From assembly GCA_030584005.1 (NCBI GenBank), contig CP129486.1:435556-499555 (forward strand): DNA of 64,000 bases. The letters are read 5' to 3'. The notes beneath the pieces were generated by a model that saw only the letters and a list, made by a program, of their open reading frames with translations, was not told the origin of the DNA and made no database searches. Within the stretch, counting starts at the first letter, position 1. Each line of letters starts with the position of its first letter. The DNA comes from Bdellovibrionota bacterium. GTDB lineage: Bacteria > Bdellovibrionota_C > UBA2361 > JAFLCA01. This document shows, in pieces, positions 1,770-48,298 of the stretch. Made by a program: the position numbers and the translations under genes.

Positions 1770-1822
1770 AGTAATCAGAATGCGGTGCCCGCGAAGTCCG
1801 TGCTAGGAGAGTATGCTTTTCA

Positions 1823-5679: not shown

Positions 5680-6735
5680 ATGGAGCCTATCGTTCAGCGT
5701 ACTTCAGATTTAGATGAGGCGATGCAATGGGGATGGGATCGAATGGTGTCTTCTGTAAGCTACGCACCACTATTTGCAACATTAAAATGGATCGCAATTA
5801 TTAGAGATGTTTATCATCTGACCCCACTGCTTATCCTTATTCGACGTGGATCGGAATTTTGTGCCATTACTGGTTTTACACGAAAGCGAATTTTTGCAAG
5901 TCCGTCTTATATCTCAATGCCGTTCAATTTCTATGCACCGATTGTATATTCTCACGAAGACCTTGTTCCGCTGGCATTTGAAGTCTTGAATGACCTACCA
6001 TTTGAGCGAGTAGTACTGAACCACGCTCTCCCTCCCCAATTATCAAAAGGCATCGAGTCGCACTCAGTCGAATCGTATATCAACCTCGAGTGCTCTGAGC
6101 CAGAGCTGAAAGATCGTTTTAGCAAAGGGATGTATCACGATTCTCTCCGACGAGAGCGAAGAAGTGCGGAGCAGGGAGTTACCTTCGACTTTCTCAAAAC
6201 AGAGGAGGAACTACGAAGTTTCTATTTATTGGCGGTTCGCTTTTATCAAAAGCGCTTCGCCATGATTTTCCATCCTGAATCGCTTTTTAAGCGAATCTTT
6301 ACTGATCTGATTCCCAATGATCAAGCACGCATCTACACCGCAAGGTATCGAAGCAAAATTATAGCGGGGTTGGTCATCCTGCGGGCCACCAATTCCAGCC
6401 ATTACGCGTGGGGAATAAGTGATACTGAACACTACCATTTAAGTTTGAATAAGGTTTTGCTAAGGAAAGCCATTATCGACGCCCATTCGGAAGGTCATAT
6501 ATCGTTCAATCTTGGTACCACCCCTCTTAGCAATTCAAATTTACTTGAGTACAAGAGAATGTGGGGTGGAACATCAGTCCCGGTGATGATTACCTGCGTT
6601 AAAGGACACTTCGAGTTACCAAACTACGAACGAGACGTGAAGGTAAGATTGTTTGGCCCTCTCGTTCGTCGAATTCCTGCGCCAATGCTAAAAAGAATTT
6701 TGCCCTACGTCGTTCCCCATCTGGTCGGAATTTAA
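5680..6735 (+). CDS. FemAB-like / GNAT-fold acyltransferase (Acetyltransf_6-like)
   Basis: C-terminal YAWGISD...LNKVLLRKAIIDAHSEGHISFNLGTT...LLEYKRMWGG block resembles FemAB/BioF2-like acyltransferases of polysaccharide loci. Confidence 0.45.
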   Translation: MEPIVQRTSDLDEAMQWGWDRMVSSVSYAPLFATLKWIAIIRDVYHLTPLLILIRRGSEFCAITGFTRKRIFASPSYISMPFNFYAPIVYSHEDLVPLAFEVLNDLPFERVVLNHALPPQLSKGIESHSVESYINLECSEPELKDRFSKGMYHDSLRRERRSAEQGVTFDFLKTEEELRSFYLLAVRFYQKRFAMIFHPESLFKRIFTDLIPNDQARIYTARYRSKIIAGLVILRATNSSHYAWGISDTEHYHLSLNKVLLRKAIIDAHSEGHISFNLGTTPLSNSNLLEYKRMWGGTSVPVMITCVKGHFELPNYERDVKVRLFGPLVRRIPAPMLKRILPYVVPHLVGI

Positions 6736-7517
6736 TGAAAAGAATCGGCATATTGATAGGACCGTATCCCTGGCTTCTCGATCAAGCAGACCTCATAGTA
6801 ACTGCTGTAGGGGCGGACCGTTGCCACCTCATAATCCATGATTATTCAGGATGGAAAAGCCAGTACATCGAAGCAAGACGGCGAGTGCGCCGATATGGAG
6901 TGTGCGGCACCATAAACCAAGTCGCCTTCTACTTACTCGCTAGCCGCCTCGAATCTGAGCGCGACGAGCGAACGTGGAGGGAAGTATTTGACCGTTTTCA
7001 TCGTAAGTATCCTCGGCTCCCTATTGCTACAATTCAAGATGTCAACAGCCTCGAAATGCACGCTATCTTAACGAATGCAGAATTAGATCTATTAGTAAAT
7101 ATGGGGGGTGGCTTGATGAAGGCGGCTACATTCAATCGTCCAAAAATGGGTACGATAAATGTACATCCAGGTTTAGTGCCTTACTATCGCGGAGCGAATG
7201 CAAATTTTTGGGCGGTGTATCACAATGATTTCAAAAAGGTCGGCGTCACTGTGCATCAAGTAGATTCGGGAGTTGACAGCGGACCGGTAATTCTCACAGC
7301 TACGATTCCGGTCTACAAGGATGATTCGTTGTTGAAGATTACACGACGTGCGTATGAAAGCGGTGTTAATATGCTAATTACTGCGTTAGTACAGTTTCAA
7401 TCAAGCGGCAACTTGCCGCCCGCAAAGGCATGCGACGATAAGTTCGCCGCCTATGGATGGTATGGACTTACTCATTATCTTAGGTTTCTCTCAAGACTGA
7501 AATCGCTGAATGATTAG
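6735..7517 (+). CDS. formyltransferase-family protein (Fmt/ArnA N-domain-like)
   Basis: INVHPGLVPYYRGANANFWA ... VTVHQVDSGVDSGPV matches formyl-transferase catalytic core; start overlaps preceding stop (TAATG). Confidence 0.65.
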   Translation: MKRIGILIGPYPWLLDQADLIVTAVGADRCHLIIHDYSGWKSQYIEARRRVRRYGVCGTINQVAFYLLASRLESERDERTWREVFDRFHRKYPRLPIATIQDVNSLEMHAILTNAELDLLVNMGGGLMKAATFNRPKMGTINVHPGLVPYYRGANANFWAVYHNDFKKVGVTVHQVDSGVDSGPVILTATIPVYKDDSLLKITRRAYESGVNMLITALVQFQSSGNLPPAKACDDKFAAYGWYGLTHYLRFLSRLKSLND

Positions 7518-28942: not shown

Positions 28943-29060
28943 AAAGTCCCAGCAACTTCCTACTTTCGCGGGAAATCCCACTATCATCGGCTCTAGAGGG
29001 CTTAACGACCGTGTTCGGTATGGGAACGGGTGTGGCCCCTCCGAAATAATCACCAGGGCT
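28943..29060 (-). rRNA. rrf: 5S ribosomal RNA
   Basis: reverse complement reads GCCCTGGTGATTATTTCGGAGGGGCCACACCCGTTCCCATACCGAACACGG...GGGAC, canonical 5S. Confidence 0.9.
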
Positions 29061-29797
29061 TAAAGATCCAATAAATCTCTAAGCTCTAGCGACATCCCGC
29101 TGGCACTATTCAGGCCACACATAGAGCGCATGTGAAATCTTGGCGCTAGCCAAGTTTCACAAGCAAGCATGCTTGGCCCCTCCGAAATAATCACCAAGGC
29201 TCAAAAGTCTATTTCAACTTTAAGCTTTGAGGATCCATCGCGGAGTTCTAAAAACAGAAACTGGATTTCATGCGAGCAAAGTACAGCACTGGCCAAACTT
29301 TGCTCGCAGAAATCGTGGTAACTCCAGATTCCTGGAGTACCTCACACCAGAACTTCAGTCCTGGCGATCAACTAATCGTCATTATCGAGCGCGATTCGTA
29401 AAATAAAAATCTACGTTTCGCAGATATTGCACATCTCGGTGCTTACCCCTCGTTTCAGCAATCATTGATAGATCAAGCACGATCTAAAAAATGTCGCGTA
29501 AACCATTGGTAAAAAAAGCATTGTAGCGTCGGTGGTCTGAATTAATCAGACAACAAGCTACCTACCTTGAATTACGCAATCTCTCCACGTGCAAGCACGC
29601 TCTTGAGAAAGCGCTTCCGCGTAATTCAAATCTTGGTTTTGCCAAGTTTGAATTGCTAGAAACAAGGAGGAATTAAGAAAATTTAAGCCGATCGGCAAAT
29701 TAGTACTGGTTAGCTCCATACATTACTGTACTTCCACACCCAGCCTATCAACGTTGTAGTCTACAACATGCCTTAAGGGAGATCTTATCTTGGAGGC

Positions 29798-29830
<33 letters not shown>

Positions 29831-29946
29831 GTTCCGGACATAGCTACCCAGCTGTGCCACTGGCGTGACAACTGGTGCACCATAGGTCCGTTCACTTCGG
29901 CCCTCTCGTACTAGAAGTAACTCTCCTCAAATCTCCTACGGCCACG

Positions 29947-30005
<59 letters not shown>

Positions 30006-30036
30006 TGGCGAACAGCCAAACCCTTGGGACCTACTC

Positions 30037-30091
<55 letters not shown>

Positions 30092-30108
30092 GACTCGTGG
30101 GGGAGATA

Positions 30109-30147
<39 letters not shown>

Positions 30148-30303
30148 CGACCCTTCCATACAGGATCGCCGGATCACTAAGGCCTACTTTCGTACCTGTT
30201 CGAGATGTCCCTCTCACAGTCAAGCAAGTTTATGCCTTTACACTCGACGCGTGGTTTCCAAGCACGCTGAACTTGCCATTGCGCGCCTCCGGTACTCTTT
30301 GGG

Positions 30304-31394
30304 CAACTATGTTTTTCTCCTGCGTGGCACTTTGTAAAGAAAAGATGGCAGTATGAACGGCTCTACAAGAGCTTGGAATTGTTCATACGATCGCCCAGAT
30401 ATATATATTTGGACTCCGTCTTTTTGATGACGCTCCTTGCAAATGAGCTTGAACTTTGTCTCCAGCGTTCGAATAGCGATCGCTATACTTTGTGCGTCGT
30501 AACCCTGTGTATTTAGTATGACGGTCTTTGAGTCCTTCGATTTGAGTGACCCATCATCCATATACCAGTACGCCAGAGCCCGTGGTGTTAACCATCGGTG
30601 TAGCAGTTTTGGAATCGACTTGTGTCGGCCCTTATAAAACTGCTGCGCATAAAAGCGGAAAGCTGCATGGCTATAAGTTTGAAACGTTAAGTTTGTGGAC
30701 TTACTGCCAGTACTGCTTTGTACTATTCGCTCGCGAGGGGGAGTTCTTACCCACTCCTTGAAAAGCTCATAGAGGTGATTCACGTAATCGGCATGAGCTG
30801 CCGACTGTTCTACCTTCACTCGAAAGATGTTTCCGCCTGGCCGACGCTCCAGATGGGCGTCACCGAGGAGAATTCCGACGAGTGTTTCGTGCTGAATCTC
30901 AGAGATTCGCAACGATCTTTTGAGCTCTTCAATTTGTTTTGAGCGCATCGATTAAAGTGCCGCGAGAGTTCTGACTAATAATGTCAGCTTTCAGTCGCCT
31001 GAAAGTTCAGACTGTATCACTCTCCAATGGTACTACTGTATACCATGGAGACTTGGCGTTCAGTCGTTGAGGGGAAATCGAAGCGCAACTTGAATCTTGC
31101 TCCGAAGTCTTCCCTGCTGATTGTCCGCACCAGTGCATTTTCACTGAATCATTTTTTAACCTTCCGAATCGTGGTGTTACCAGGTTCGGATAGTTGCTGA
31201 TTCAGTAGCACATGGATTCTAACCCTTTTTCAACCGAAGCAAGAGTGAGCTTCGATGATGAAGAGACGGAGTTTCCAGCATACAGCCAAATTTGCCTTAC
31301 ACGTTACCGTGTAAGCGCCCCTAATTTCATTCCACAGGTCATTTGATCTATGGAAAGTCAATTTATCAGGCGCGATAAATTGCTTATGCGGTCG
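30304..31394 (-). other. group-I-type intron in 23S rRNA at approx. E. coli position 2262 (beside P-loop)
   Basis: exon reads ...GGGGCGGTCGCCT | intron | CCCAAAGAGTACCGGAGG; upstream exon ends in U, intron ends in G; exon between the two introns is exactly 331 nt = E. coli 1932..2262. Confidence 0.75.
30307..30948 (-). CDS. double-motif LAGLIDADG homing endonuclease encoded in the 23S intron
   Basis: 213 aa; motifs LVGILLGDAHL and LAYWYMDDGSLK; stop codon 3 nt before the intron 3-prime end. Confidence 0.8.
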   Translation of the reverse strand: MRSKQIEELKRSLRISEIQHETLVGILLGDAHLERRPGGNIFRVKVEQSAAHADYVNHLYELFKEWVRTPPRERIVQSSTGSKSTNLTFQTYSHAAFRFYAQQFYKGRHKSIPKLLHRWLTPRALAYWYMDDGSLKSKDSKTVILNTQGYDAQSIAIAIRTLETKFKLICKERHQKDGVQIYISGRSYEQFQALVEPFILPSFLYKVPRRRKT

Positions 31395-31678
31395 AGGCGA
31401 CCGCCCCAGTCAAACTACCCACCACGCGCTGTCTTGGATGAGGATTACTCATCTCAGTTAGAGGTCAGAAACTGTAAGGGTGGTATTTCAAGGTTGACTC
31501 CATTAAGGCTAGCGCCCTAACTTCAAAGTCTCCCACCTATCCTACACATACAATTCCCGACATCAACGCGAAGGTATAGTAAAGGTGCACGGGGTCTTTT
31601 CGTCCTGCCGCGGCTACCCGGCTTTTTTACCGAGATATCAATTTCACTGAGTTCGTCGTCGAGACAATGGGGATGTCG

Positions 31679-31725
<47 letters not shown>

Positions 31726-32356
31726 CAGATCTCCTAATTTGTTTCCAATTTAGCTGGACTTTCTCTTTGCAATCCGCGGTTCATCTTTATTGCTATGGAG
31801 CGAATTTCTTCAATTCCATTTTTTCTTAAATGAACCCCACCTTCCATCAATAAGAGCACTGACTTGAATAATTCAAAATCAAGCTTCTTTTTTGATTGAA
31901 GTGGATGCTTACTGAAGAACGGGATAATTATTTCACGTAGGTGTTCTAATTTTCGAACTCGATAGGCTAGACGGTCTCCGTGATTCACCCGAACCACGCC
32001 ACAACCGAAAAAGCTTTTCAAGGCTTCTAATAATTGAACGTCTCGTTTGTGTTGGACGACTGTGAATTCAGGCAAGACCTGAACACCCAGCGTCATTTCC
32101 TTATGAGTATTAATACCCACATGGAAACAACCTTCTCCATCTACAAATCCTACAACCCAATCTGCATTAAGATTCATGGGACGCACCAAACGTAAAGTCT
32201 CTGAGGGTTCCCGGAACGACCCGGGCCTTCCCTGCTGATTGCCTCCCTGTCTGTTGGATTTTCACTGCCAGAACAAGTTCTGGCGAGTACCATACAGTTT
32301 TTGAAGGGTTTCCAGCATATGGTTTAGTTTTACTAAGGCTAGCGATTCTATCTTTA
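31726..32356 (-). other. group-I-type intron in 23S rRNA at E. coli position 1931
   Basis: exon ...CGGTCCTAAGGT | intron (631 nt, ends in G) | AGCGAAATTCCTTGTCGGG. Confidence 0.8.
31734..32189 (-). CDS. single-motif LAGLIDADG homing endonuclease (I-CreI-like size class) encoded in the 23S intron
   Basis: 151 aa; WVVGFVDGEGCF motif; stop 8 nt before intron 3-prime end. Confidence 0.8.
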   Translation of the reverse strand: MVRPMNLNADWVVGFVDGEGCFHVGINTHKEMTLGVQVLPEFTVVQHKRDVQLLEALKSFFGCGVVRVNHGDRLAYRVRKLEHLREIIIPFFSKHPLQSKKKLDFELFKSVLLLMEGGVHLRKNGIEEIRSIAIKMNRGLQRESPAKLETN

Positions 32357-32401
<45 letters not shown>

Positions 32402-32485
32402 GCTCATCGCTTCGCGTAAAGCTAACGATTCACCTTAACCTTCCGGCACCGGGCAGGCGTCAGACCCTATACTTCCTCTTACGAG

Positions 32486-32519
<34 letters not shown>

Positions 32520-34074
32520 AACCCCCTGCTCTCTGCAACCCTCAATAGCTTCAAAAAGTAAATTCTTTAACTATCGAAGGCCCACCTTCTCCCGAAGTTA
32601 CGGTGGCAGTGTGTTGAGTTCCTTGACGACGATTCTCTCAAGCGCTTTAGTATACTCTACTCGCCCACCTGTGTCGGTTTACGGTACGGGCAGTGCTGTA
32701 CTCACTTAGAGGCTTTTCTTGGAAGTGTGGGATCAATCAGTTCGCTCCGGGTTTCCCCTTTGCTCCCCATTACCTCTCGGAATATGCCAGAGCGGATTTG
32801 CCTACTCCAGCTTCCTACGGGCTTAGACCGCGAACCAACATGCGGCTGATCTACCCTCCTTCGTCCCCTCATCGCTAAAACGTACAACGCTGGCACGGGA
32901 ATATTAACCCGTTTTCCATCGACTACGCCTTTCGGCCTCGCCTTAGGACCCGGCTTACCCTGGTAGGATTACCCTAGCCCAGGAACCCTTGGGCTCACAG
33001 CGGAAGAGTTTTTCACTCTTCTTATCGTTACTCATACCGGCATACTCACTTGTCTGAACTCCACGCGTCCTTACGGTCACGCTTCAATGCACAGACAACG
33101 CTCCTCTACCGCTCCTCAGGTCCGAAGACCTGTTAAACCCGTAGCTTCGGTACAATGCTTAGCCCCGTTAAATTTTCCGCGCAGGAAAGCTTGACTAGTG
33201 AGCTGTTACGCTTTCTTTAAAGGATGGCTGCTTCTAAGCCAACCTCCTAGTTGGCTTAGCTCTCCCACAACGTTTGCCACTTAGCATTGATTTTGGGACC
33301 TTAGCTGACGGTCTGGGATCTTTCCCTCTCGCGAACGGACCTTATCACCCGCCCACTGACTCCCGGATTCTGACTCTAACGGTATTCGGAGACTATCTGG
33401 ATTTGGTAGACTGGTAGGTCCCCTAGTCCAATCAGTGCTCTACCCCCGTTAGATATATTGTCCGAGGCTATACCTAAATATATTTCGAGGAGAACCAGCT
33501 ATCACCCGGCTTGTTTAGCCTTTCACTCCTACTCACAGCTCATCCGAGAAATTTTAAACTTTCACCGGTTCGGTCCTCCGCCAGGTGTTACCCTGGTTTC
33601 AACCTGTCCATGAGTAGATCGCACGGGTTTCGGGTCTACTCCGTGTAACTAGACGCCCTTTTAAGACTCGCTTTCGCTACGGCTACGCCTCACGGCTTAA
33701 CCTAACGCTACACAGAAGTAACTCGCCGGCTCATGATGCAAAAGGTACGCGGTCGCACGTTAAGTCCGAAGACTTCATAGTGCTTCCACTGCTTGTAGAT
33801 GTACGGTTTCAGGTCTATTTCACTCCCCTTTAGGGGCGCTTTTCACCTTTCCCTCACGGAACTAGTTCACTATCGGTCAGTAACGAGTATTTAGCCTTGG
33901 ATAATGGTCCACCCAGATTCCCACAAGATTCCTAGTGTCTCGTGGTACTCAGGAACGTACTCACAGCCTTTGTCGGTTTCGCTTACAGGGGTTTCACCTT
34001 CTGTGCCCTAGCTTTCCAACTAAGTTCAACTACCCACTCGGGTCTGCTTTATTGTACGCCCTACAACCCTCGAC

Positions 34075-34262
34075 GAGCATTTATGCTCGTCGAGCACGCC
34101 GGAGGCGATATGAAATACGCGTAGCGTAGTTCACGTCGCGGAGGCGGGCTCTCCTATGCATAAATGTTTCAGTCAACCTTCGCTTGCTCGCGCAAGCTCC
34201 GGCCGATCTCCTCGCATTTATGTTCGCTTCGAACATAAATGCTCGTCGAGTTTAGGCTCTTC
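34075..34262 (-). other. extra ~185-nt hairpin-rich insertion in 23S domain I (approx. E. coli position 270); candidate intervening sequence / expansion segment
   Basis: ends CTCGACGAGCATTTATG ... CATAAATGCTCGTCGAG are long inverted repeats; internal hairpins; absent from E. coli alignment. Confidence 0.5.
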
Positions 34263-34798
34263 CCTTTTCGCTCGCACTACTGGGGGAATCTCTTTTGATT
34301 TCTCTTCCTGCAGGTACTAAGATTTTTCAATTCCCTGCGTTGGCTTCCTTTCGGATGGTCATAAAGACCAGGTTTCCCTATTCAGAAATCTCCGGGTCAA
34401 AGTTTATTCGGCAACTCACCGGAGCTTATCGCAGCCATATCACGTCTTTCTTCGCCTGTTACTGCCGAGGCATCCACCGTACACCCTTAGTAGCTTAAAT
34501 ATTTCTTAATATCTGTCGCTACCGATTGATGTGCTTTCTATTCTACTACCGCAGAGCTTGCGCCCTGCGAGTCAATTCCGCCTCGTGGAAGTTTTTTGCG
34601 CGTCCACGAAGTTATCTCCAACAGGTGACACTTCACATGCTGAAGAACAAAAATTGACAAATCGCGCTCGAGAATGACGACTCAGTCAACTTATTCGTCT
34701 ACCCATATTCAATTGTAATCGCGACCTACTACTGCTCGGTCGCAAGCGGCCTTTTATGTTAGCCGCAAACAAATCTTCGACTCGTTGCCTGTGTTGAG

Positions 34799-34932
34799 CG
34801 TAATTGGAATCTTGGCAGAGCCAAGTTCCAATAGCTAACTCCCGGCGTAATTGGAATCTTGGCAGAGCCAAGTTCCAATAGCTAACTCCCGCTGTAATTG
34901 GAATCTTGGCAGAGCCAAGTTCCGATAGCTGG
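34799..34932. repeat. 3 x ~46-nt tandem repeat in the 16S-23S spacer, each unit with hairpin GGAATCTTGGCAGAGCCAAGTTCC
   Basis: GTAATTGGAATCTTGGCAGAGCCAAGTTCCAATAGCTAACTCCCG repeated three times (third unit diverged). Confidence 0.8.
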
Positions 34933-35347
34933 AAATGCCGCAACGGTCATCGATAGAAGCTGGTTTTGCTCAAGCGTAGCAGGATAGCGTGCTGTAACTA
35001 TCACCGTGTTTCCACAGTGAATCATCCAGCGTAATCAAAATATTGGCACGCCTACGTTTCGTAGAAACTACGGCGCGTAGACTCCGCCAATTTTTGATAG
35101 CTAAAAAACTGAGCTCAGGGAGTAATACTATCTTCGTCATGTAAGCGTCTTGCGACGCTATCTCGTAAAAGGTGGATCTTACCTGAGGATCCGAGATTGT
35201 TTGTCGTTTCCGTTTCGTCCAACAGAAGCAAAAAGCTCTGTCTTTCTAACGGTATCCTGATTCATGTCCAGCTTTGCTGTTTATGAATCCAATCCATTCT
35301 GAAGCCCGATGTTGATCTTTCGATCGCACGGAACTTGAGGACTCCTT

Positions 35348-36865
<1,518 letters not shown>

Positions 36866-37772: not shown

Positions 37773-38963
37773 TTGATACCCATGCAACCCGCAGTGATGA
37801 TTTCTTCAGGTGAACTCTCCGGCGAACAGTATGGCGCCGATGTCGCGCGAGCGCTGCGTCGCGCACACCCCGATGTGCATCTGCTGGGCATGGGAGGCGG
37901 CGCCATGCGCAACGCAGAAGTTCAGCTCCTTGTTGATTGCCAATCACATGGGTCAGTAATGGGGTTTTTAGAAGCCGTCCCTTCCCTTATGAAGATTCGC
38001 GCTGCATATCGGAAGTTGGTGAACGCTCTTGACGTCGACAAGCCGGCCCTATTGATCCTCATTGACTATCCGGAATTCAATCTAAGGTTGGCCCGGGCGG
38101 CCAAGCAGCGCGGCATCAAGGTGCTCTATTACATAACTCCCAAACTCTGGGCATGGCGTGCGAGGAGGGTAAAATGGTTTCAGCGCTACGTTGATCGAGC
38201 GGCAGTGATCTTTCCATTTGAAGCACAGTGGTTTTCATCACATGGATGGAATAGCGCCGAATTCGTGGGACATCCGCTGGTTGATTCGATACCCGAGCGG
38301 CGTCTGGAAAGCCGAGAGCGCGATGAGTATCTTACCTCGCTTTCGCTTGACTCGGCCAAGCCGGTACTGGCCGTGTTTCCCGGGAGCCGTTCACAGGAGA
38401 TAGCACGCCACGTCCAGCCGCTCAGTGAGGCACTTGCGCTTCTTCATCACCAAGATCCGGATATCCAGCCAGTCGTTTGTCGTGCGCCCTCAGTTCCCGC
38501 ACGATCACTCGAATGCTTTGCTGGAGTTCCGGGAACTCGCGTCGTGGAGACTGCGCCGGTTACTTTGATGCGCAGCGCGGATGCTGGGCTGCTTAAGTCA
38601 GGTACGACCAATCTTCAGGCAGCGCTAGCGGGACTGCCATTTTCAATGTTTTATAAAGCCTCCGCCACATCGGCATGGATCGTGCGAAACTTCGTGTCGA
38701 TTCGGGAGTACTCAATTGTCAATCTGGTCCGACCAGGCGCGGTACGGGAGATTGTGCAGGAGCAGGTGACCGCAGAAGTACTGTGCACGGAGGCAATCCG
38801 ACTGATTCGGGATGCAGCGTATAGGGAGAGAGTACAACAGAATCTAGCTGGACTTAGGGAGGCGCTTTCGTTGAAAAATTCGGAGCACACGGGAATCAAA
38901 ACAGACGTACCAACGCGCGTCGCCAAGATTGCCATTTCCCTTCTCGGTGAGGGGACGCAGTGA
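37773..38963 (+). CDS. lpxB: lipid-A-disaccharide synthase
   Basis: 396 aa; N-terminal ISSGELSGEQYGA.. and central LpxB blocks. Confidence 0.85.
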   Translation: MIPMQPAVMISSGELSGEQYGADVARALRRAHPDVHLLGMGGGAMRNAEVQLLVDCQSHGSVMGFLEAVPSLMKIRAAYRKLVNALDVDKPALLILIDYPEFNLRLARAAKQRGIKVLYYITPKLWAWRARRVKWFQRYVDRAAVIFPFEAQWFSSHGWNSAEFVGHPLVDSIPERRLESRERDEYLTSLSLDSAKPVLAVFPGSRSQEIARHVQPLSEALALLHHQDPDIQPVVCRAPSVPARSLECFAGVPGTRVVETAPVTLMRSADAGLLKSGTTNLQAALAGLPFSMFYKASATSAWIVRNFVSIREYSIVNLVRPGAVREIVQEQVTAEVLCTEAIRLIRDAAYRERVQQNLAGLREALSLKNSEHTGIKTDVPTRVAKIAISLLGEGTQ

Positions 38964-39502
38964 TCATCGGTTCACAAGCAGATCGTCTAGTGACTGTCGC
39001 ACTCGGTGGAAATGTTGGGGATAGGCTAAAAACCCTGCGCTCAGCCGTGGATGGGCTCAGTAAACTCGGCGCCATGGAGCGAGTATCCCCCACTTACGAG
39101 ACCATCGCGCTGACCGCTCCGGGTATGTACTCTCCTGATGCACCGCGATTTCTCAACGCCGTGATACAGCTTCGCACAGTTCACTCCCCACCCGAGCTGC
39201 TTTCAGTACTCCTTGATATCGAACGGTATCATCAGAGGAGCAGGGACCCAAAGCAGCGCTGGGGCCCCCGAACACTTGATCTCGATATAATCGCCATTGA
39301 GGATGTAGTAGTAGAGCTGAGTGAACTCACGATCCCACATCCGGAAATGCACAGGAGGAGCTTTGTCCTCTGTCCGCTGTGCGACATCGATCCGGATTGG
39401 GTGCATCCGTTGTTAAAGAGGAGCGCACGCGAACTGCTGGCCGACCTTCCCCGCGAGGAGTTCCCTCCATATCGGATTCAAGACTCAATCGAGGCGCCTT
39501 GA
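38960..39502 (+). CDS. folK: 2-amino-4-hydroxy-6-hydroxymethyldihydropteridine pyrophosphokinase (HPPK)
   Basis: VTVALGGNVGDR...RWGPRTLDLDII HPPK motifs; start overlaps lpxB stop. Confidence 0.85.
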   Translation: MIIGSQADRLVTVALGGNVGDRLKTLRSAVDGLSKLGAMERVSPTYETIALTAPGMYSPDAPRFLNAVIQLRTVHSPPELLSVLLDIERYHQRSRDPKQRWGPRTLDLDIIAIEDVVVELSELTIPHPEMHRRSFVLCPLCDIDPDWVHPLLKRSARELLADLPREEFPPYRIQDSIEAP

Positions 39503-39846
39503 GATCGTCAGCGGTACAATTCAGACCAGCGTGCGCTGCTGTCAGACACCAGCCATTTGCTCAGCGTCATCGAACTCATTCGCTGTACTGCCGGAGAGAC
39601 CTGCCGCACCAGCGGGTCTACATTGATCGCACCTCCGTCGCCACCGTGCCCGAAGTGACGGAGCGCAACAAAAAGTGTGACAGGTCCCCTGGCGCACCTT
39701 TTTGACTAAGCGCGGAGGAGAATCGTTAGGCGAGCAGGCACTCTCTGTGAGCCACTACCACTTATCTTGGAAGCGCCTCTGGCTCCCCTGCACTTAATCA
39801 CACAAACGCACCAAACAAGTTGAGCGAAGGAAGGTAGAGCTGAAAC

Positions 39847-41053
39847 CGGCCGGGGGGAGCGTATATGACGCCCACCCCCGGCCGGGTATCGAGACCTTTT
39901 GGCGGAACCTCCACTCGGCTTACGGAGGAGGGATTCTAGCGGTGCTAAGCGCCTTGGGCTTGCACTTGCAGCGCCGACGACTCTTCACGCAGAGGGCGAC
40001 CATGGCCGCAGTACAGAACGTGTGCGGCTCTGGGACGGCAAGCGTCTCCACCCGCACCGCTGCATTGGTTCCCCATGTAAAGACGGGGTGCTGACTCAGC
40101 AACTCCGGCGGTCCAAACGGACCGACGTCCGAAGCCCACCAGTCCTCAAGGCCAGAGCCCGACATGCGCGGGGCAAAGTACGGAATCACTCCCGGCATAA
40201 TCTCCTGACCGTCGATTGACAGGGAGATCACATGCTGGGCGCCCGCTGTGGTGAGCCAGTTGTAGTCACGCACATCGATGGTGATCAGGTAGAGGTTGTG
40301 GTTGATGCCCGGCTCGTCGAGGTTGGTTGAGGTGCCGATAACATCCTGCCAGCCGGGGTTGACGATGTCTGAAGTATCGAACTCCTGGAAGTAGTTGGGG
40401 TTCTGTGGATCCCAACAAAACGGGTCATCGATGTAGGAGGTGACATCAGGGTGGAACCCCGCCCGAATGGTGAAGTCACCCTCCTCAGCCGGATGGTTCG
40501 GCGTGTAGTCACCGTAGTCGAGGGACATGACGAAGGAGATCTGACTCACCTTCTGGCCGTTGCCCGGGATGGTGAGGCCCAGACTCGCCTTCCCACTGGG
40601 GTCATAGCCCGCGGAGATGCGGTGGTACGGGATTTCACCCGTAAACTGGTTGAGGTTGTCCTTGATGATGTCAGCGTGGGCGGACTGTCCCATGATGACA
40701 GTGAGGATGAGGGTCCCCACGAGGCCCATGACGCTGTTGATGGTACGCATTCCTTCGCTCCTGTGAATTGAAACCGCGATGCTGCTCTTCCTTGTCATCC
40801 GGGTACGCCCCGGTTGATCTACTGGCAGTGAGTCCCGCGCTTAACATAAGCCCACGACTCACTGCCACAAAAAACAGCGTGAAACCTTAAGAACTCTTTA
40901 GTTCCTTCGCACGACTTCTTTGGAATTCGTGCATGCGGCTTCTACCAATTCCCTGGCGACCTGATAATGAACCTTTCAAGGCCACAAGGCTACCACCACG
41001 CTCTCCTTTAGTCACGCGCACTTACGACCGATACAAAGAGCGGAGGCTCCGAG
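39847..41053. repeat. 1.2-kb direct repeat, copy A (carries intact PEP-CTERM gene)
   Basis: ~97% identical to 45199..46406 over ~1207 bp. Confidence 0.85.
39920..40798 (-). CDS. secreted protein with PEP-CTERM-type C-terminal sorting signal
   Basis: signal peptide MRTINSVMGLVGTLILTVIMGQSAHA; C-terminus ...AVPEP-HTFCTAAMVALCV-KSRRRCK. Confidence 0.65.
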   Translation of the reverse strand: MTRKSSIAVSIHRSEGMRTINSVMGLVGTLILTVIMGQSAHADIIKDNLNQFTGEIPYHRISAGYDPSGKASLGLTIPGNGQKVSQISFVMSLDYGDYTPNHPAEEGDFTIRAGFHPDVTSYIDDPFCWDPQNPNYFQEFDTSDIVNPGWQDVIGTSTNLDEPGINHNLYLITIDVRDYNWLTTAGAQHVISLSIDGQEIMPGVIPYFAPRMSGSGLEDWWASDVGPFGPPELLSQHPVFTWGTNAAVRVETLAVPEPHTFCTAAMVALCVKSRRRCKCKPKALSTARIPPP

Positions 41054-41200: not shown

Positions 41201-41854
41201 TCAGGTCAAATCCGCATATTTTTGCGTCACGCAAATACCTTGTACTGCTCTATCCCCCGCCAAGTCGGGAGAATGCGTCAGATCTGAGCCGAGAGCAGAA
41301 AGGAGCGCCGATGAAAGGTCAGTCGATGAGATGACCTCCTCGTCAATCGATACTCTGATAAGAGCCGGATGCAAAGTGGCTGGATTAAACGCTACGGACT
41401 GCGGTCCTGGCATTCTACCTTCAGGATTATTACGTAGGAATAAACGGCGTGCGAAACAAAGCCCGTCCGTGGTCACTCCAAACATGTCTGTCAGCCAGAG
41501 AGGTTGCTTTGCAATGGCAAGGTCAAGCGAGCGTGCAAGACACCTGCCTTGTCCCTGCAAAGTAGGAGAAGGCAGGCCCTGTAAGTGCGCATGTAGAGCT
41601 CGCACAGAAAGAACGACCAAAGCTTTCACAGCATTGGTCCAATGGAATGTGCCACATCCCGCATGCACCCCGGCTGTCTTTCCCCTCACACACTGGAGCG
41701 TGCCTACTAGTGGGTGCTGGAAGAGCGTGGAGGATAATTCCGGCTTTGCTCTGTCATACAAGCGGAGATCAAGTAGGGTCATAACATGATTCTGGTAATT
41801 ACCCACGCCATCTGGTGAGCTATGTTCATGGTCACTTTTTATGACTATACGCAA
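41201..41854 (-). CDS. possible hypothetical protein downstream of the XRE-like gene
   Basis: 217-aa ORF co-directional with operon; overlaps a competing plus-strand ORF; weak. Confidence 0.25.
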   Translation of the reverse strand: MRIVIKSDHEHSSPDGVGNYQNHVMTLLDLRLYDRAKPELSSTLFQHPLVGTLQCVRGKTAGVHAGCGTFHWTNAVKALVVLSVRALHAHLQGLPSPTLQGQGRCLARSLDLAIAKQPLWLTDMFGVTTDGLCFARRLFLRNNPEGRMPGPQSVAFNPATLHPALIRVSIDEEVISSTDLSSALLSALGSDLTHSPDLAGDRAVQGICVTQKYADLT

Positions 41855-41889: not shown

Positions 41890-42741
41890 TTACCTATAGT
41901 TGTTCGCCGCGCGCCTCAGCAAAGCATTGGCCTCGTGACCTCCCACTGAGGCATCATACATCAGATCAAACGCTCGATTGAGCCACGCAATGGCTTCTTG
42001 ATCCGTGCAATGCACTGCCCCTACTGCTGTTTCAAGCGTGGCTGACATGGAATCGAAAACACAGAAACTGTACATAAGCGGAACTGGCAAATTTGTGCCA
42101 CGAGGCAAGAGGCGAAATGCTTCAGGATTAGATTTTAAAATTGCTGCTAAGTGCGCCAGCTGCTCGCCCATTACCGTGCGCGAACCTACTACGCGATACA
42201 ACGCCTCTTCATCGATTATGCAGAGAATATCTTTTCGTGAGTTAGATTTGGAGGCTGCCCTTTTGAGCATTTCCGCACCGATTCGACTTCGTAACTTGCT
42301 TGCTTCTCGAGCATCTTTCTGGTCAACAGAGTGCAACATCATCATCTCATAGGCATAGCGTTCCGTTTGACAAAGCCCTACTAAAGCCAATGTTCCGACC
42401 TCTCTGTAGGTACTTGCTTGTTTTAGACGAGCCCAATATTCGACATGCAGGTCCTCTGCGTTCTTGCTTGAGCTTCGCCACGGGTCAAATTGAATTAAGA
42501 AGACTTTGCCTAGTTCCCGCAGTCTGACATGCTCATTGGAAGATAGGGCAAGAGCTTTGGAGAAAAGATCGATGTAGTCTAGATCTATCTTGATCTCGCC
42601 TCGTTCACGCTTGAGTATTCCGGATACACTGTAGCGTCCGCGCATTGCTCTGGAGAGCGTCGCGGGGCTCTCCATGCCCTTCTGATAGCGGATCGAACGC
42701 AGGCGGCGCCCGAGGCTGTCTGGTTTATCTAACTGGGGCAT
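41890..42741 (-). CDS. XRE-family HTH regulator with DUF5753-like C-terminal domain (Scr1-family-like)
   Basis: N-terminal LGRRLRSIRYQKGMESPATLS...RYSVSGILKRERGE HTH; C-terminal ...ALVGLCQTERYAY...ILCIIDEEALYRVVG...MGEQLAHL... block pattern. Confidence 0.6.
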   Translation of the reverse strand: MPQLDKPDSLGRRLRSIRYQKGMESPATLSRAMRGRYSVSGILKRERGEIKIDLDYIDLFSKALALSSNEHVRLRELGKVFLIQFDPWRSSSKNAEDLHVEYWARLKQASTYREVGTLALVGLCQTERYAYEMMMLHSVDQKDAREASKLRSRIGAEMLKRAASKSNSRKDILCIIDEEALYRVVGSRTVMGEQLAHLAAILKSNPEAFRLLPRGTNLPVPLMYSFCVFDSMSATLETAVGAVHCTDQEAIAWLNRAFDLMYDASVGGHEANALLRRAANNYR

Positions 42742-42753
42742 AAGGAAGTAAAT

Positions 42754-43359
42754 CTAGAACGACACCCGTAATGGAGCCTCGCGCATCATCTTTAAGTAAT
42801 CGCTCAACGGTACGGCAACTTTCATTAGCTCGTCACGTAGTCCAGTGAACTTCGACACCGTTCCTGGCGTATTATCGAACTCCATATTCTTTAGCTGGCT
42901 CCCATCGAAATTAATTTCGAGCACAGATGAAGCATCGAACAGGTAGAAGTCCCTCCCGCGGAGCTCTACAAACCGCGGGTGTCTGTCAATGTTAACAAGA
43001 TAAACTTTCTCACCTGCTGGGGCATTAAACAGAGTGTATGCCCACTCTATCTCGTAGCGGAGATACGGGGTTAAGACCTCTGGGATCAAATGCACCCGCA
43101 CCATTTCCTTACCAGCCGATACTGCGGCCTTCACTCTGTCATACCAGGCCGTCCAGCCCGAGTCTGTGAACGGTGGATTGATACCACCGTTCACATACTC
43201 GCGCAGGACACGGTCGTCGTCTACCACGGCATATGTATCAAGGGTCTCGACGCGGAAGGCCGAATGATTAAACTTCCAAAATATCTCCTGCTGCTCCGCA
43301 GGAGTGACAATGCGACGTTCGCACGGATCCACATGGTGACCTTGTTGGGTAGACGGCAT
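42754..43359 (-). CDS. hypothetical protein (201 aa), middle gene of three-gene operon
   Basis: 13-nt gap to XRE-like gene, 16-nt gap to upstream gene; no recognised motif. Confidence 0.5.
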   Translation of the reverse strand: MPSTQQGHHVDPCERRIVTPAEQQEIFWKFNHSAFRVETLDTYAVVDDDRVLREYVNGGINPPFTDSGWTAWYDRVKAAVSAGKEMVRVHLIPEVLTPYLRYEIEWAYTLFNAPAGEKVYLVNIDRHPRFVELRGRDFYLFDASSVLEINFDGSQLKNMEFDNTPGTVSKFTGLRDELMKVAVPLSDYLKMMREAPLRVSF

Positions 43360-43374
43360 AAGCTCTCTCTACTA

Positions 43375-43677
43375 TTAGACCTCAGGGGCGGCAAGTTTCA
43401 ATAGTTGCGGATCAATACGGACCGCAAATTCATCATCGTAAACTTTCACGAGCCCCGTAGCTTCCAAATCCTTTAAGTCAGAAGCCATAAGTCGCTTGCC
43501 CACTATTACTATAGACCCATCTTCGCACTTAAGGATTGATGGGCACGTTCCCTGTGGGCAGCACGCCTCCTTGCCGGTAACAAACTGACCCGGGAAGCTC
43601 TCCTTGGCAATCATAGTAAACTTGGTCGACATAGATCCTCCATAAACGCGCTTCTCAAACAAGAAAAGACGAAACAC
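43375..43677 (-). CDS. small Cys-containing hypothetical protein (100 aa; possibly starts at internal Met giving ~85 aa), weakly DUF397-like
   Basis: ...ACCPQGTCPSILKCEDGSIVIVGKRL... loosely resembles the Cys + DG-x-V-x-VRDSK core of DUF397. Confidence 0.4.
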   Translation of the reverse strand: MFRLFLFEKRVYGGSMSTKFTMIAKESFPGQFVTGKEACCPQGTCPSILKCEDGSIVIVGKRLMASDLKDLEATGLVKVYDDEFAVRIDPQLLKLAAPEV

Positions 43678-43933
43678 AGCTAAGCAAACCGCCGCTAGAA
43701 ACTAGACCGGCAAATCGCTGTAGTCAATAAAATTGACCACCCCATTTGAAAGGGTGGCAATCTGAATCTATTCGCAAAATTAGCCTGTTGGAAATGCCTC
43801 CTCCAGAACGAAGCGTTCAATGTCCTGCGCGGATAATTTCTGAATCCTGGTCCCACATCTAAATGTGGTGACAGCTGCTAGTCACTAGCTACAAACCCTC
43901 ATTGACTATGCGACTAGACTGTAAGAGGCCACC

Positions 43934-44207
43934 ATGACAAAAAAGCGCTGCTCCTCACGACAAAGGAGGCAGCATCAATTCTTCGAGTCAATCGCACAAA
44001 ACTGTATGACCTCATCAAGGGAGGGGTAATTCCAGGGGTGCGAATTGGAGCTGATTGGCGCATTCCAATTGAATGCATTGAGAGACTTTGCGCGGCAACG
44101 ATCCCCGACGCGTTTTTTCAACAGCGAGTCCCTCCGCGAAGAAAAGGTGGGCGGCCGAAACTAACCGAAAAGAAGGTGCGCGCCACAATCCCCGTGGCGT
44201 CCACATA
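43934..44207 (+). pseudogene. excisionase-family HTH (HTH_17-like) gene interrupted by -1 frameshift in an A6 run
   Basis: ATGACAAAAAAG...: with one extra A the frame reads MTKKALLLTTKEAASILRVNRTKLYDLIKGGVIPGVRIGADWRIPIECIERL... to stop at 44207. Confidence 0.6.
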
Positions 44208-44241
44208 GGACCCGCAATCTTGCAGACATTAGGAACTTTAT

Positions 44242-44867
44242 ATGACGATCGAAACTGCTCTCCTATGGGTCACCTACCTTGGTGTGGTCTGCCTTATCTT
44301 TACGACCTACGAACTCGGAGTGCTCCTTGGCTCTCGATTGTTCGGGGGAACGTGCACTGGTTGTGACTGTGGATTTGGGCCACCTATAGTGGATGGTGTG
44401 GTGGGAAGTATTCACCTACGACTTCGCATTCTCCCCATCCCTATTGGCTTTACAATTGCGATGCGAGAGAAGGTCGCCGGGCATTTAGTAATCAGAAGGC
44501 CTCTTATCGAGCAGTTAAGAAGGCACTATGGCCCCCAAGTCAGGGTCGACCATCACATCAGTCCACTGCAACCTGTGCCCCACGTATGCTCATACCTCTC
44601 CTTGGAACGGCTCTGCTTGTGCTTATGCTTGTGGCATCTCTCGGCGTCGTCGCCCCTTGGTTGATTGTCATTTTATCTGCAGCAATGGGACCCATGACGT
44701 GTTGCACGGCATCCCAATGTGCTCGCATGGTGTTCATGCTAAGTGGCGCATCCGTGATTGTAGCACTCTACAACCTCTTCCCAGTTAAAAGACTGAATGA
44801 TGGCGCACTGCTTATGGAACTCATTCGAACCCCGCGGCTTCAAACCCTATACTGGACCAATACATGA
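44242..44867 (+). pseudogene. possible site-2-protease (M50)-like membrane protein, frameshifted and with degenerate HExxH (YELGV)
   Basis: two overlapping ORFs in different frames; C-terminal LYNLFPVKRLNDGALL resembles the M50 NxxPxxxLDGG motif. Confidence 0.25.
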
Positions 44868-45198
44868 GACCTCGAACGTAGCCTTCAAATGAGCTCGGCA
44901 CGGGGGGCCTGTTTTATTGGATCAGGAGTTGAGCTACTTGTCCCAGCAGAACGACCGCTACGACACCTAGAATTATCTCACACTAATGTCCAATCTTGAG
45001 CCAGTTCGGCCCACTAACATTGTGGTCGTTACTCCGCAGCGGGAGCTGGCGGCGATCCGGGACGAGTGAGCGATAGAACGACTCCGACGCAGGCTAAGCA
45101 TAGGTAGACAGTTACAAACAGTGCTAGGGCTACCGCAATCGGGACAAAGGTGAAGAAGGGTCGTAGAGGGGCACCAACGCCTCCCCGGGCTTTAGTTC

Positions 45199-46406
45199 CG
45201 GCCGAGGGAGCGTATATGACGCCCACCCCCGGCCGGGTATCGAGACCTTTTGGCGGAACCTCCACTCGGCTTACGGAGGAGGGACTCTAGCGGTGCTAAG
45301 CGCCTTGGGCTTGCACTTGCAGCGCCGACGACTCTTCACGCAGAGGGCGACCATGCCGCAGTACAGAACGTGTGCGGCCTCTGGGACGGCAAGCGTCTCC
45401 ACCCGCACCGCTGCATTGGTTCCCCATGTAAAGACGGGGTGCTGACTCAGCAACTCCGGCGGTCCAAACGGACCGACGTCCGAAGCCCACCAGTCCTCAA
45501 GGCCAGAGCCCGACATGCGCGGGGCAAAGTACGGAATCACTCCCGGCATAATCTCCTGACCGTCGATTGACAGGGAGATCACATGCTGGGCGCCCGCTGT
45601 GGTGAGCCAGTTGTAGTCACGCACATCGATGGTGATCAGGTAGAGGTTGTGGTTGATGCCCGGCTCGTCGAGGTTGGTTGAAGGTGCCGATAACATCCTG
45701 CCATCCAGGGTTGACGATGTCCTGAAGTATCGAACTCCTGGAAGTAGTTGGGGTTCTGTGGATCCCAACAAAACGGGTCATCGATGTAGGAGGTGACATC
45801 AGGGTGGAACCCCGCCCGAATGGTGAAGTCACCCTCCTCAGCCGGATGGTTCGGCGTGTAGTCACCGTAGTCGAGGGACATGACGAAGGAGATCTGACTC
45901 ACCTTCTGGCCGTTGCCCGGGATGGTGACGCCAAGACTCGTCTTGCCGCTCGGCTCGTAGCTCGCAAAGATGCGGTGGTACGGGATTTCACCCGTAAACT
46001 GGTTGAGGTTGTCCTTGATGATGTCAGCGTGGGCGGACTGTCCCATGATGACAGTGAGGATGAGGGTCCCCACGAGGCCCATGACGCTGTTGATGGTACG
46101 CATTCCTTCGCTCCTGTGAATTGAAACCGCGATGCTGCTCTTCCTTGTCATCCGGGTACGCCCCGGTTGATCTACTGGCAGTGAGTCCCGCGCTTAACAT
46201 AAGCCCACGACTCACTGCCACAAAAAACAGCGTGAAACCTTAAGAACTCTTCAGTTCCTTCGCACGACTTCTTTGGAATTCGTGCATGCGGCTTCTACCA
46301 ATTCCCTGGCGACCTGATAATGAACCTTTCAAGGCCACAAGGCTACCACCACGCTCTCCTTTAGTCACGCACACTTACGACCGATACAAAGAGCGGAGGC
46401 TCCGAG
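45199..46406. repeat. 1.2-kb direct repeat, copy B (carries decayed PEP-CTERM gene)
   Basis: see copy A. Confidence 0.85.
45271..46151 (-). pseudogene. PEP-CTERM protein gene, second copy disrupted by several 1-nt indels
   Basis: split into ORFs 45636..46151 and 45271..45771; indels clustered near 45690-45735 and 45350-45375 relative to copy A. Confidence 0.65.
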
Positions 46407-47391: not shown

Positions 47392-48298
47392 TTATTCGAT
47401 TGAAGTTGAAGCCCTCCTCCAACCCCCCATTACCGCATTCTCAAATTCAATCGACGCGCCTTGAGTCCTCTCCCAAAAACTCGAAAAAGCTTCGCGCCAT
47501 AGCAACATTGTGCGTTCGAATGAACGAAGCTCCATTGAGATAAGCGCTGAGGCCTGCGAGCTGCGAAATGGATCTCGTTCCCCGAGAGCACCGCCTAGGA
47601 ATCCCTTTCTCGATGCACCGATCATAATAGGCTGTGATAGGCCAGCGGCTCTAAAGCGTGGCAGATCTCGCAGCAGCTCAAAGGAATAGCGTGGATCGTT
47701 GCTTACGAAGCGGCCCATACCCGGATCAACAATAATGCGAGCCGGAGAGACCCCTCTTCGCACCGCCTGTTCCACCCGCTCACAGAGAAAATCCGCGATA
47801 TGGCCCACCACGTCAATCGTACTCACGCGTCTCCGGGGTAACATGCGGCAAAGGAGCATCCTTGGCGTACATCAATACTAGGTAGGCATCGAATTCCGCT
47901 ACGACCTCGGCGAGCTGTGGGCTCGGCTCTTAGAGCCGACACATCATTATGATTCGGCATCCTGCGGCCAGGGCGAACCTCGCAACTGTAGACTTGTAGG
48001 TGTCGATGGAGCAGCAACTAATCCTGGGACCCAGAAGCTCTAACAGCGGTCTTAAGCGTTGCAATTCCTCAGAGGCTGAGAGCGGGGTTGATCCGGGACT
48101 GGTTGCTTCTGCCCCGATATCTAGGAGTGCAGCACCAGAGCGCAGCAGTGTATCGCAATATTCAACGGAGGTGCGCAGGTCTACGAGCCTACCTCCATCA
48201 CTGAATGAATCGGGAGTCACATTCACTACACCGACTAACACCGGGCACTTAGGGCTTAGCCCTAAGCCGGAATAGTCAAAGTCGAGCTGTGTGTTCAT
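47392..48298 (-). pseudogene. folP: dihydropteroate synthase with at least three frameshifts
   Basis: N-terminal part VVNVTPDSFSDGG...; motifs NDVSAL, LAEVVAEFDAYLVLMYAKDAPLP, and IIVDPGMGF each in a different frame within ~150 nt. Confidence 0.7.

Follow-up and report, generated by a model that had tools for sequence, protein, structure and literature searches.

A three-gene operon for a small protein, a DUF6879 protein and an XRE-DUF5753 regulator

We analysed a 64,000-nt stretch of contig CP129486.1 from a Bdellovibrionota metagenome-assembled genome (MAG), hereafter called the window, and in particular three tightly packed minus-strand genes within it (Table 1; all gene coordinates are window positions). 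These genes, referred to together as the trio, encode a small cysteine-containing protein, a member of the Pfam family DUF6879, and a regulator with an XRE-type helix-turn-helix (HTH) and a DUF5753 domain. A further gene, P4, lies downstream of the regulator gene on the same strand. The three open reading frames (ORFs) of the trio were found where a preliminary description, made from the letters of the window alone, had placed a tight minus-strand operon. The gaps that it gave as 16 and 13 nt are 15 nt (between the small gene and the DUF6879 gene) and 12 nt (between the DUF6879 and regulator genes). For the first gene it had allowed a product of 85 to 100 aa. The ORF itself (43375-43677) is confirmed, and would encode 100 aa if started at a GTG codon, but that start is disfavoured. 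The true start is almost certainly the ATG at 43632, which gives a protein of 85 aa, because the sequence GGAGGA lies 6 nt upstream, the gene calls on independent contigs agree, and all 14 relatives of the protein align from there.

We compared the trio with related loci and contigs, labelled L001 to L034. In the comparison with L003, which is 70% identical in DNA and whose proteins are 84, 78 and 76% identical to those of the trio, non-synonymous differences were few (pN of 0.10, 0.12 and 0.16) and synonymous sites were saturated (pS of approximately 0.87). By this measure all three genes are genuine and under strong purifying selection, and the small gene is the most conserved.

Table 1. Genes, candidate control sites and repeats in and around the trio.
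Feature	Position	Strand	Description
Small protein gene	43375-43632	-	85 aa; unnamed family; two-cysteine motif
DUF6879 gene	42754-43359	-	201 aa; Pfam DUF6879
XRE-DUF5753 regulator gene	41890-42741	-	283 aa; pI 9.3; N-terminal XRE-type HTH and C-terminal DUF5753
P4	41201-41782	-	193 aa; tblastn and HMM matches at related loci; unknown family
O1, candidate operator GTCAATTTTATTGAC	43723-43737		Palindrome 105 nt upstream of the small-gene ATG
O2, candidate operator GTCATAAAAAGTGAC	41831-41845		Between the regulator stop codon and P4; 49 nt upstream of the P4 ATG
24-nt block GATGTGGGACCAGGATTCAGAAAT	43836-43859		Near-identical in L003 within an otherwise diverged intergenic region
HTH_17 gene (excisionase/MerR-like)	43934-44208	+	Pfam HTH_17 on the L001 and L003 orthologues
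M50-like membrane protein gene	44242-44906	+	Found by tblastn with the 229-aa protein of L003; split into two frames
Left direct repeat	39846-41053		1.2 kb; 292-aa PEP-CTERM-like gene and upstream region
Right direct repeat	45198-46406		Copy of the PEP-CTERM-like gene, frameshifted

The regulator has a DUF5753 domain and an HTH close to restriction-modification controller proteins

Proteins of the locus were searched against Pfam, NCBIfam, PADLOC-DB 2.0 (5027 models), PHROGs and PDB. The regulator matched Pfam DUF5753 (PF19054) over residues 108-277 (78.1 bits, gathering cut-off 23.4; E 8.8e-22). The window regulator alone gave no Pfam HTH match at E≤1. Its orthologues carry Pfam HTH_31, and a profile built from the regulator and its relatives matched the restriction-modification (R-M) controller proteins C.BclI (E 9.5e-7) and C.AhdI (E 1.4e-3) in PDB, over about residues 6-70. 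The XRE HTH and the DUF5753-like domain of the preliminary description are both borne out by these matches, and a kinship with the actinobacterial WhiJ and Scr1 regulators, which have the same XRE-DUF5753 architecture, is supported. To judge from its score against the NCBIfam equivalog Sco1979 (NF058600; 41.2 bits against a cut-off of 350, E 1e-10), the regulator is only a distant relative of that family. PHROG 9908, named 'DNA binding protein', matched the regulator over its full length (E 1.9e-15), and was the only PHROG match for any protein of the trio or P4. A metagenome scan with the regulator alignment added one further short contig only.

Profile comparison relates DUF6879 to the DUF5753 domain of the regulator

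The 201-aa middle protein, previously described as matching nothing recognisable, belongs to Pfam DUF6879 (PF21806), with 116.6 bits against a cut-off of 23.9 (E 1e-33). No mention of DUF6879 was found in the approximately 8 million papers and preprints searched, and PADLOC contained no match; the module is uncharacterised, as had been supposed. A sequence search of DUF6879 against PDB returned nothing meaningful. Structure prediction modelled the protein confidently as a phospholipase D (PLD)-like alpha/beta fold. The neighbours of this predicted fold included the non-catalytic proteins TrmB (among the top matches) and FAM83, together with Nuc, NucT, Zucchini and the nuclease domains of restriction enzymes, and the non-catalytic folds matched as well as the nucleases did.

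The PLD nucleases Nuc, NucT and Zucchini, and the nuclease domains of BfiI and SauUSI, have the motif HxK(x)4D(x)6GSxN (HKD), whereas DUF6879 lacks it. No lysine was conserved in 120 DUF6879 sequences, and the sole conserved histidine, H90 in the motif R-V-H-x-x-P, has no lysine at +2. Judged only by the order of secondary structure elements, the strand x-D-F-[WY]-L-F-D-D would be the equivalent of the HKD strand. The polar residues R36, E38, R88, H90, R101, E103, E117, D137 and D142 are invariant.

Four of the 120 DUF6879 proteins weakly matched Pfam DUF5753. When the DUF6879 alignment was compared with the regulator alignment using hhalign, the probability was 68% (E 5e-5, 133 columns), and the comparison with 25 DUF5753 C-terminal domains gave 86% (E 5e-6). 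The controls, P4, the small-protein family and DUF397, gave 0.1-0.2%. These profile comparisons make DUF6879 a paralogue of the DUF5753 domain in the neighbouring regulator, encoded as a protein in its own right. Because the PLD-like DUF6879 is homologous to DUF5753, the regulator is probably organised along the lines of TrmB, as an HTH joined to a PLD-like domain without catalytic function.

The small cysteine protein defines a separate family

The small protein is acidic (pI 5.0) and contains four cysteines in all, two of them in a C25-x4-C30-P motif. It matched no family in Pfam, NCBIfam, PADLOC or PHROGs and no fold in PDB. Only 14 relatives, each about 85 aa long, came out of a phmmer search that covered 1.84 billion representatives exhaustively, and the family has the motif C-x4-5-CP[AS]V..DG..VVG...E.AV...LL.

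A loose resemblance to DUF397, the family of BldB, had been suggested and was not upheld. None of the 15 family members matched Pfam DUF397, even at E≤10, and hhalign comparison with 10 diverse DUF397 sequences gave 0.04-0.6%, like negative controls; PDB holds no DUF397 structure for comparison. In three Lentzea genomes, one operon contains, in this order, genes for an XRE-DUF5753 protein, DUF397 (one to three copies), the small protein and DUF6879, so that both kinds of partner are encoded together. On these results together, including the true DUF397 genes that stand there beside a member of the small family, the small protein is not DUF397. No DUF397-like ORF was found in the segment that holds the trio in the window.

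Two apparent gene fusions, as read from sequence, link the small protein to DUF6879. A Chloroflexota MAG (L016) has an apparent in-frame fusion of the small ORF to DUF6879, and in L034, a short contig of low coverage, a gene fusing a J-domain to the small domain lies directly upstream of the DUF6879 gene. The small cysteine protein may be a dedicated partner of DUF6879, with a role analogous to that of DUF397/BldB beside DUF5753 regulators.

The trio is a conserved cassette in several bacterial phyla

The gene order small protein, DUF6879, XRE-DUF5753 was found in the window and in L003, L013-16, L018/19, L021, L025, L026-28, L029 and L030, with unrelated flanks (at high-GC loci, genes were called by hidden Markov model (HMM) searches of stop-to-stop segments). 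Besides Bdellovibrionota, the trio occurs in Proteobacteria, Acidobacteriota, Planctomycetota, Chloroflexota and Actinomycetota. The trio is an uncharacterised conserved cassette in several bacterial phyla. The preliminary description had spoken of an extra partner gene. DUF6879 is no peculiarity of this genome; it is the partner conserved at the core of the cassette, and the trio is frequent on plasmids of actinobacteria.

The settings of the cassette are diverse. On the 46-kb contig L025 it lies between an NgoMIV-type R-M system and type IV secretion system (T4SS) genes, with Vsr/SNase genes and a sigma-70-like gene also nearby, and in a Proteobacteria MAG (L026-28) it lies beside the insertion sequences IS66 and IS91. 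The hosts of L013-16, L018/19 and L021 are MAGs of Terriglobales, Phycisphaerales, Chloroflexota and Thermoleophilaceae, and L030 is on an Amycolatopsis plasmid. DUF6879 was found on 55 PLSDB plasmids, every one of them actinobacterial, and several of these matches lie within a few kb of the ends of linear plasmids. DUF6879 was not found in INPHARED phages or by a pattern scan of IMG/VR.

Linear plasmids of Streptomyces have the same arrangement, with a small ORF that lacks cysteines. This ORF probably encodes a divergent member of the small family, to judge from hhalign (27%, E 6.6e-4, in the correct register). On these plasmids (L031, L033 with two copies, and PLSDB entries) a DUF6415 gene goes with the trio, together with a small ORF, either divergent upstream or downstream, a placement that varies as that of P4 does. 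L031 has a PIN-domain protein as a neighbour and L033 a restriction endonuclease.

DUF6879 also occurs outside the complete trio. Intact solo DUF6879 genes with neither of the two neighbours were found in L006-10 and L011. The solo gene of L006-L010 (6001-6594) has 99.5% DNA identity over 664 nt to the trio copy of L027, and it occupies a strain-variable slot between NfeD and Band_7 genes, with short repeated sequences flanking it. In L004, the DUF6879 and regulator genes lie between a Cas9 gene (293-3274) and an ATP-grasp-like ORF (6575-7498) that is preceded by a 75-aa ORF. DUF5753 regulators have been reported in association with graspetide clusters (PMC8939145), which the ATP-grasp-like neighbour recalls.

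P4 and a conserved palindrome accompany the trio

Homologues of P4 are found next to the trio in L003, at the same position downstream on the same strand, and in L024, L026-28 and L029, upstream and divergent. Across the five loci at which P4 and the trio are found together, the placement of P4 and the direction in which it is read differ. Its pN in comparison with L003 was 0.31. It has no match in Pfam, PDB, PHROGs or PADLOC and no recognisable effector domain.

Alignment of the window and L003 upstream of the small gene revealed conserved islands, one of which is the palindrome GTCAAT-TTT-ATTGAC (O1, GTCAATTTTATTGAC). The pattern GTCA-W6N-TGAC has only two sites in the 64-kb window, compared to 0.04 expected. 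These are O1 and a second site, O2 (GTCATAAAAAGTGAC), upstream of P4. The motif GTCA-N7-TGAC was also found in L003, L021, L025, L026/27 and L029, where it lies in the intergenic regions that adjoin the small gene and P4. O1 is kept at the same position in L003, L025 and L029. L003 has an identical copy of O2 in the same place and L029 has a similar site beside P4, whereas the site in L021 lies upstream of the small gene.

The right half of O1, TTGACT, has the form of a -35 hexamer, and TAGTTT follows 17 nt downstream. This arrangement (TTGACT or TTGATT, 17 nt, TAnnnT) is kept in the window, L003 and L029. Given the half-site and the TAnnnT that follows it, the candidate operator overlaps a plausible -35 element. 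No DNA-binding protein other than the regulator is shared by all the loci with the GTCA-N7-TGAC motif, and we infer for that reason that it binds this motif, regulates its own operon and controls P4. In two Phycisphaerales loci (L014 and L015), TTCCA-N5-TGGAA palindromes, not GTCA-N7-TGAC, lie upstream of the small gene, which suggests clade-specific operators that co-evolve with the HTH.

A proposed WhiJ/Scr1-type transcriptional switch

The model that we favour, with a probability of about 0.55, is that the trio and P4 constitute an autorepressed transcriptional switch of the WhiJ/Scr1 type, with P4 as the output and the pair of small protein and DUF6879 as modulators of the regulator. A dimer of the XRE-DUF5753 protein would bind the GTCA-N7-TGAC palindrome. 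Binding at O1, which overlaps the -35 of the operon, would cause autorepression, and binding at O2, in the promoter region of P4, would make P4 the output of the module. Most probably DUF6879 would hetero-oligomerise with the regulator's DUF5753 domain, compete with it, or bind the same ligand; in each case DNA binding would be changed. The model takes the regulator to repress rather than to activate. In favour of the model, the HTH of the regulator is nearest to R-M controller proteins, which are palindrome-binding autoregulators.

Several known systems resemble parts of this model. R-M controller (C) proteins regulate their own synthesis by way of palindromic operators lying across their promoters, and we propose the same layout for O1. 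C.BclI and C.AhdI are the closest solved relatives of the regulator HTH. The C proteins consist of an HTH only (~75 aa) and control R-M genes, whereas the regulator described here has an additional C-terminal domain of ~180 aa and two accessory proteins. In anti-repressor systems of the SinI/SinR type, the gene beside that of the repressor encodes a small or truncated paralogue of the repressor domain that does not bind DNA. We propose the same logic for DUF6879 and DUF5753, although the folds are unrelated. TrmB has the non-catalytic PLD-like fold that is predicted for DUF6879, and in TrmB it serves as an effector-binding domain. It has a winged-helix HTH rather than an XRE-type HTH, there is no detectable sequence similarity, and only the trio has, beside the regulator gene, a further gene for the domain as a separate protein.

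The WhiJ/BldB/AbaA and Scr1/Scr2 systems of Streptomyces, like the trio, combine an XRE-DUF5753 regulator with a small partner of a non-DNA-binding type. WhiJ9, an XRE-DUF5753 protein, binds repeats in its intergenic region and has the neighbouring gene iosA under its control, and BldB, a DUF397 protein, does not bind DNA (PMC10294661). The presumed sites of the regulator in the window are likewise adjacent intergenic sites that would control a neighbouring gene, as for iosA. The WhiJ9 sites are direct repeats, whereas the candidate operator here is an inverted repeat. The trio differs from the WhiJ/Scr1 systems in that DUF397 is lacking, its partners being the unnamed small family and the DUF6879 protein with its predicted PLD fold, and in that no AbaA-like anti-sigma gene is present at the trio locus. 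It also differs in its host, a Bdellovibrionota MAG, with relatives in at least five other phyla.

Some observations weigh against this switch model. Neither the small gene nor P4 is obligatory: L004, the closest DUF6879 relative (61% identity), has DUF6879 and the regulator and no small gene, and P4 is absent from L021 and L025. The homology of DUF6879 and DUF5753 is read from profile comparison, at 68-86% probability, and the invariant polar residues of DUF6879 could form a catalytic site of a new type. A scan for the sigma-70 consensus did not call the proposed promoters, because their -10 elements are weak. In the window and L003, the HTH_17 protein could be an alternative binder of the intergenic region.

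The trio lies in a variable segment between direct repeats

The island bounded by direct repeats in the preliminary description is present. The repeats (1211 nt, 98.2% identical) enclose 4.1 kb with a GC content of 49-52%, compared to 57-60% in the repeats themselves. Six genes lie in the enclosed segment: P4, the genes of the trio, an HTH_17 gene in divergent orientation and the gene for an M50-like membrane protein. The same six genes are together in L003 in a different context, and this and the deviant GC content agree with the mobile or variable setting that had been proposed. No integrase, recombinase or transposase was found between 39 and 48 kb of the window, and there are no att-type repeats, the repeats being copies of the PEP-CTERM-like gene. 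A look-up through the PEP-CTERM-like protein for a locus with an empty site yielded no record. The block is better regarded as a variable segment, probably acquired by horizontal transfer, than as a defined integrative element.

An excisionase-like gene had been reported on the island. The HTH_17 gene is indeed there, but in this assembly it lacks one nucleotide that two independent Logan contigs have (GCGCTG in place of GCCGCTG) and is frameshifted after codon 4. The deletion is probably an assembly error, although the gene could be a pseudogene. The M50-like gene and the second PEP-CTERM copy are frameshifted as well, and assembly errors are the likely cause, because the HTH_17 frameshift is absent from the two independent contigs. 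The 24-nt block GATGTGGGACCAGGATTCAGAAAT may serve to control the divergent HTH_17 gene.

In both the window and L003, the M50-like gene and the HTH_17 gene form a pair. The M50-like protein matched Pfam Peptidase_M50 just below the cut-off (E 4.4e-6). The HExxH motif of this site-2-protease-like protein is degenerate, YELGV in the window and YEFGI in the intact L003 gene (4637-5326), and NxxPxxxxDGG is kept. Outside the repeats, an intact HPPK gene (folK) lies before the left repeat (38960-39502, plus strand). Beyond the right repeat is a truncated dihydropteroate-synthase-like ORF (47392-47859, minus strand), which covers only positions 138-223 of the 244 of Pterin_bind and may be a remnant of rearrangement around the island.

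Alternative explanations

We considered whether the trio might be a three-component toxin-antitoxin or addiction module, comparable to paaR-paaA-parE or to toxin-antitoxin-chaperone systems, in which DUF6879 would act as a PLD-like toxin with nuclease or phosphodiesterase activity, with the small protein as antitoxin or chaperone and the XRE-DUF5753 protein as transcriptional regulator. Such a module would be consistent with a tight operon on mobile DNA (actinobacterial plasmids, the T4SS and R-M setting of L025, and IS66 and IS91 in L026), with an acidic small protein that is fused to DUF6879 in L016 and to a J-domain in L034, and with the presence of a candidate autoregulatory operator. The fold neighbours of DUF6879 include Nuc, NucT, Zucchini and restriction-enzyme nuclease domains, and Makarova et al. 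2009 (cited in PMC10364602) predicted that XRE/DUF397 pairs are toxin-antitoxin systems. However, 14 XRE/DUF397 pairs of Streptomyces were not toxic (PMC10364602), the putative toxin lacks HxK(x)4D and has no conserved lysine in the 120 sequences, and TrmB and FAM83 match its fold equally well. Intact DUF6879 genes stand alone in L006-10 and L011, and the small gene is missing from L004. The homology of DUF6879 to the C-terminal domain of the regulator fits a regulatory partner better than a toxin. Furthermore, no toxin or antitoxin family of Pfam, NCBIfam or PADLOC was matched by the trio, and the phage collections searched yielded no DUF6879. A toxin-antitoxin module therefore seems unlikely. 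We regard as less probable still a defence switch of the abortive infection kind, directed against phages or other mobile genetic elements (MGEs), in which infection or stress, sensed by the trio, would lift the repression of a toxic effector, namely P4 or other variable neighbours. The candidate operator directly upstream of P4 would suit this proposal, as would the variation of the output genes beside a constant trio (P4, the DUF6415 pairs of Streptomyces, the sigma-70-like gene of L025), and DUF6879 occupies the strain-variable insertion site between NfeD and Band_7. The neighbours include R-M, Vsr and SNase genes (L025), Cas9 (L004), a PIN-domain protein (L031) and a restriction endonuclease (L033), but this neighbourhood evidence is anecdotal, and P4 has no recognisable effector domain. 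None of the 5027 PADLOC models matched the trio, P4, the M50-like protein or the relatives searched, the HTH_17 orthologue giving a weak, generic HTH match to mad1 only, and in Streptomyces the WhiJ-type modules govern development and the production of antibiotics rather than defence (PMC10364602, PMC10294661).

A role confined to the island is very improbable. The trio, the HTH_17 protein and the M50-like protein would in that case control excision, transfer or maintenance of the 4-kb block through recombination of the 1.2-kb repeats. The flanking direct repeats, the lower GC content and the adjacent HTH_17 gene are compatible with this, and the same six-gene block is found elsewhere in L003 and the trio of L025 beside conjugation genes. 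On the other hand, neither the block nor its surroundings hold an integrase, recombinase or transposase, the repeats are two copies of a gene of host type and not att sites, the HTH_17 and M50-like genes are absent from all other trio loci except L003, and the trio occurs in many settings that are not islands. A more far-reaching proposal, which we hold to be doubtful, is that the trio is a new, dispersed mobile signalling cassette, in which a mimic of the sensor domain with a dead PLD fold and a small protein of new fold would gate an XRE repressor and thereby hold back a variable, possibly toxic effector (P4 or the DUF6415 pairs) until stress or infection. If this were true, the cassette would be a modular switch for abortive infection or conflict between MGEs, and would also explain how regulators of the WhiJ/BldB type work.

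Implications for XRE-DUF5753 regulators

XRE-DUF5753 regulators (WhiJ, Scr1 and many paralogues) control development and antibiotic production in Streptomyces, and the mechanism by which their small partners act has been a puzzle for decades. Regulatory modules of such proteins with partner proteins were known. What is new is a second set of partners, the small cysteine protein and DUF6879, conserved across at least six phyla, together with a structural and evolutionary account of DUF6879 and DUF5753, a candidate operator and a candidate output. In this account DUF6879, and by homology DUF5753, are assigned on the basis of the predicted structure a non-catalytic PLD-like fold similar to the effector domain of TrmB. 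The Gram-negative clade offers a simple palindromic candidate operator and a single candidate output gene. The compact four-gene system is amenable to work in E. coli, and a partner that mimics a domain of the regulator would be a concrete hypothesis for a large regulator family.

Other features of the window

LpxB is encoded near the trio. A complete rRNA operon lies at 28947-36865 on the minus strand, with no tRNA in its 16S-23S spacer. Its 23S gene spans 4.8 kb, which is about 1.9 kb over the model, and holds a group I intron (RF00028, 30988-31364) and two ORFs of 213 aa (30307-30948) and 151 aa (31734-32189) that may encode homing endonucleases.

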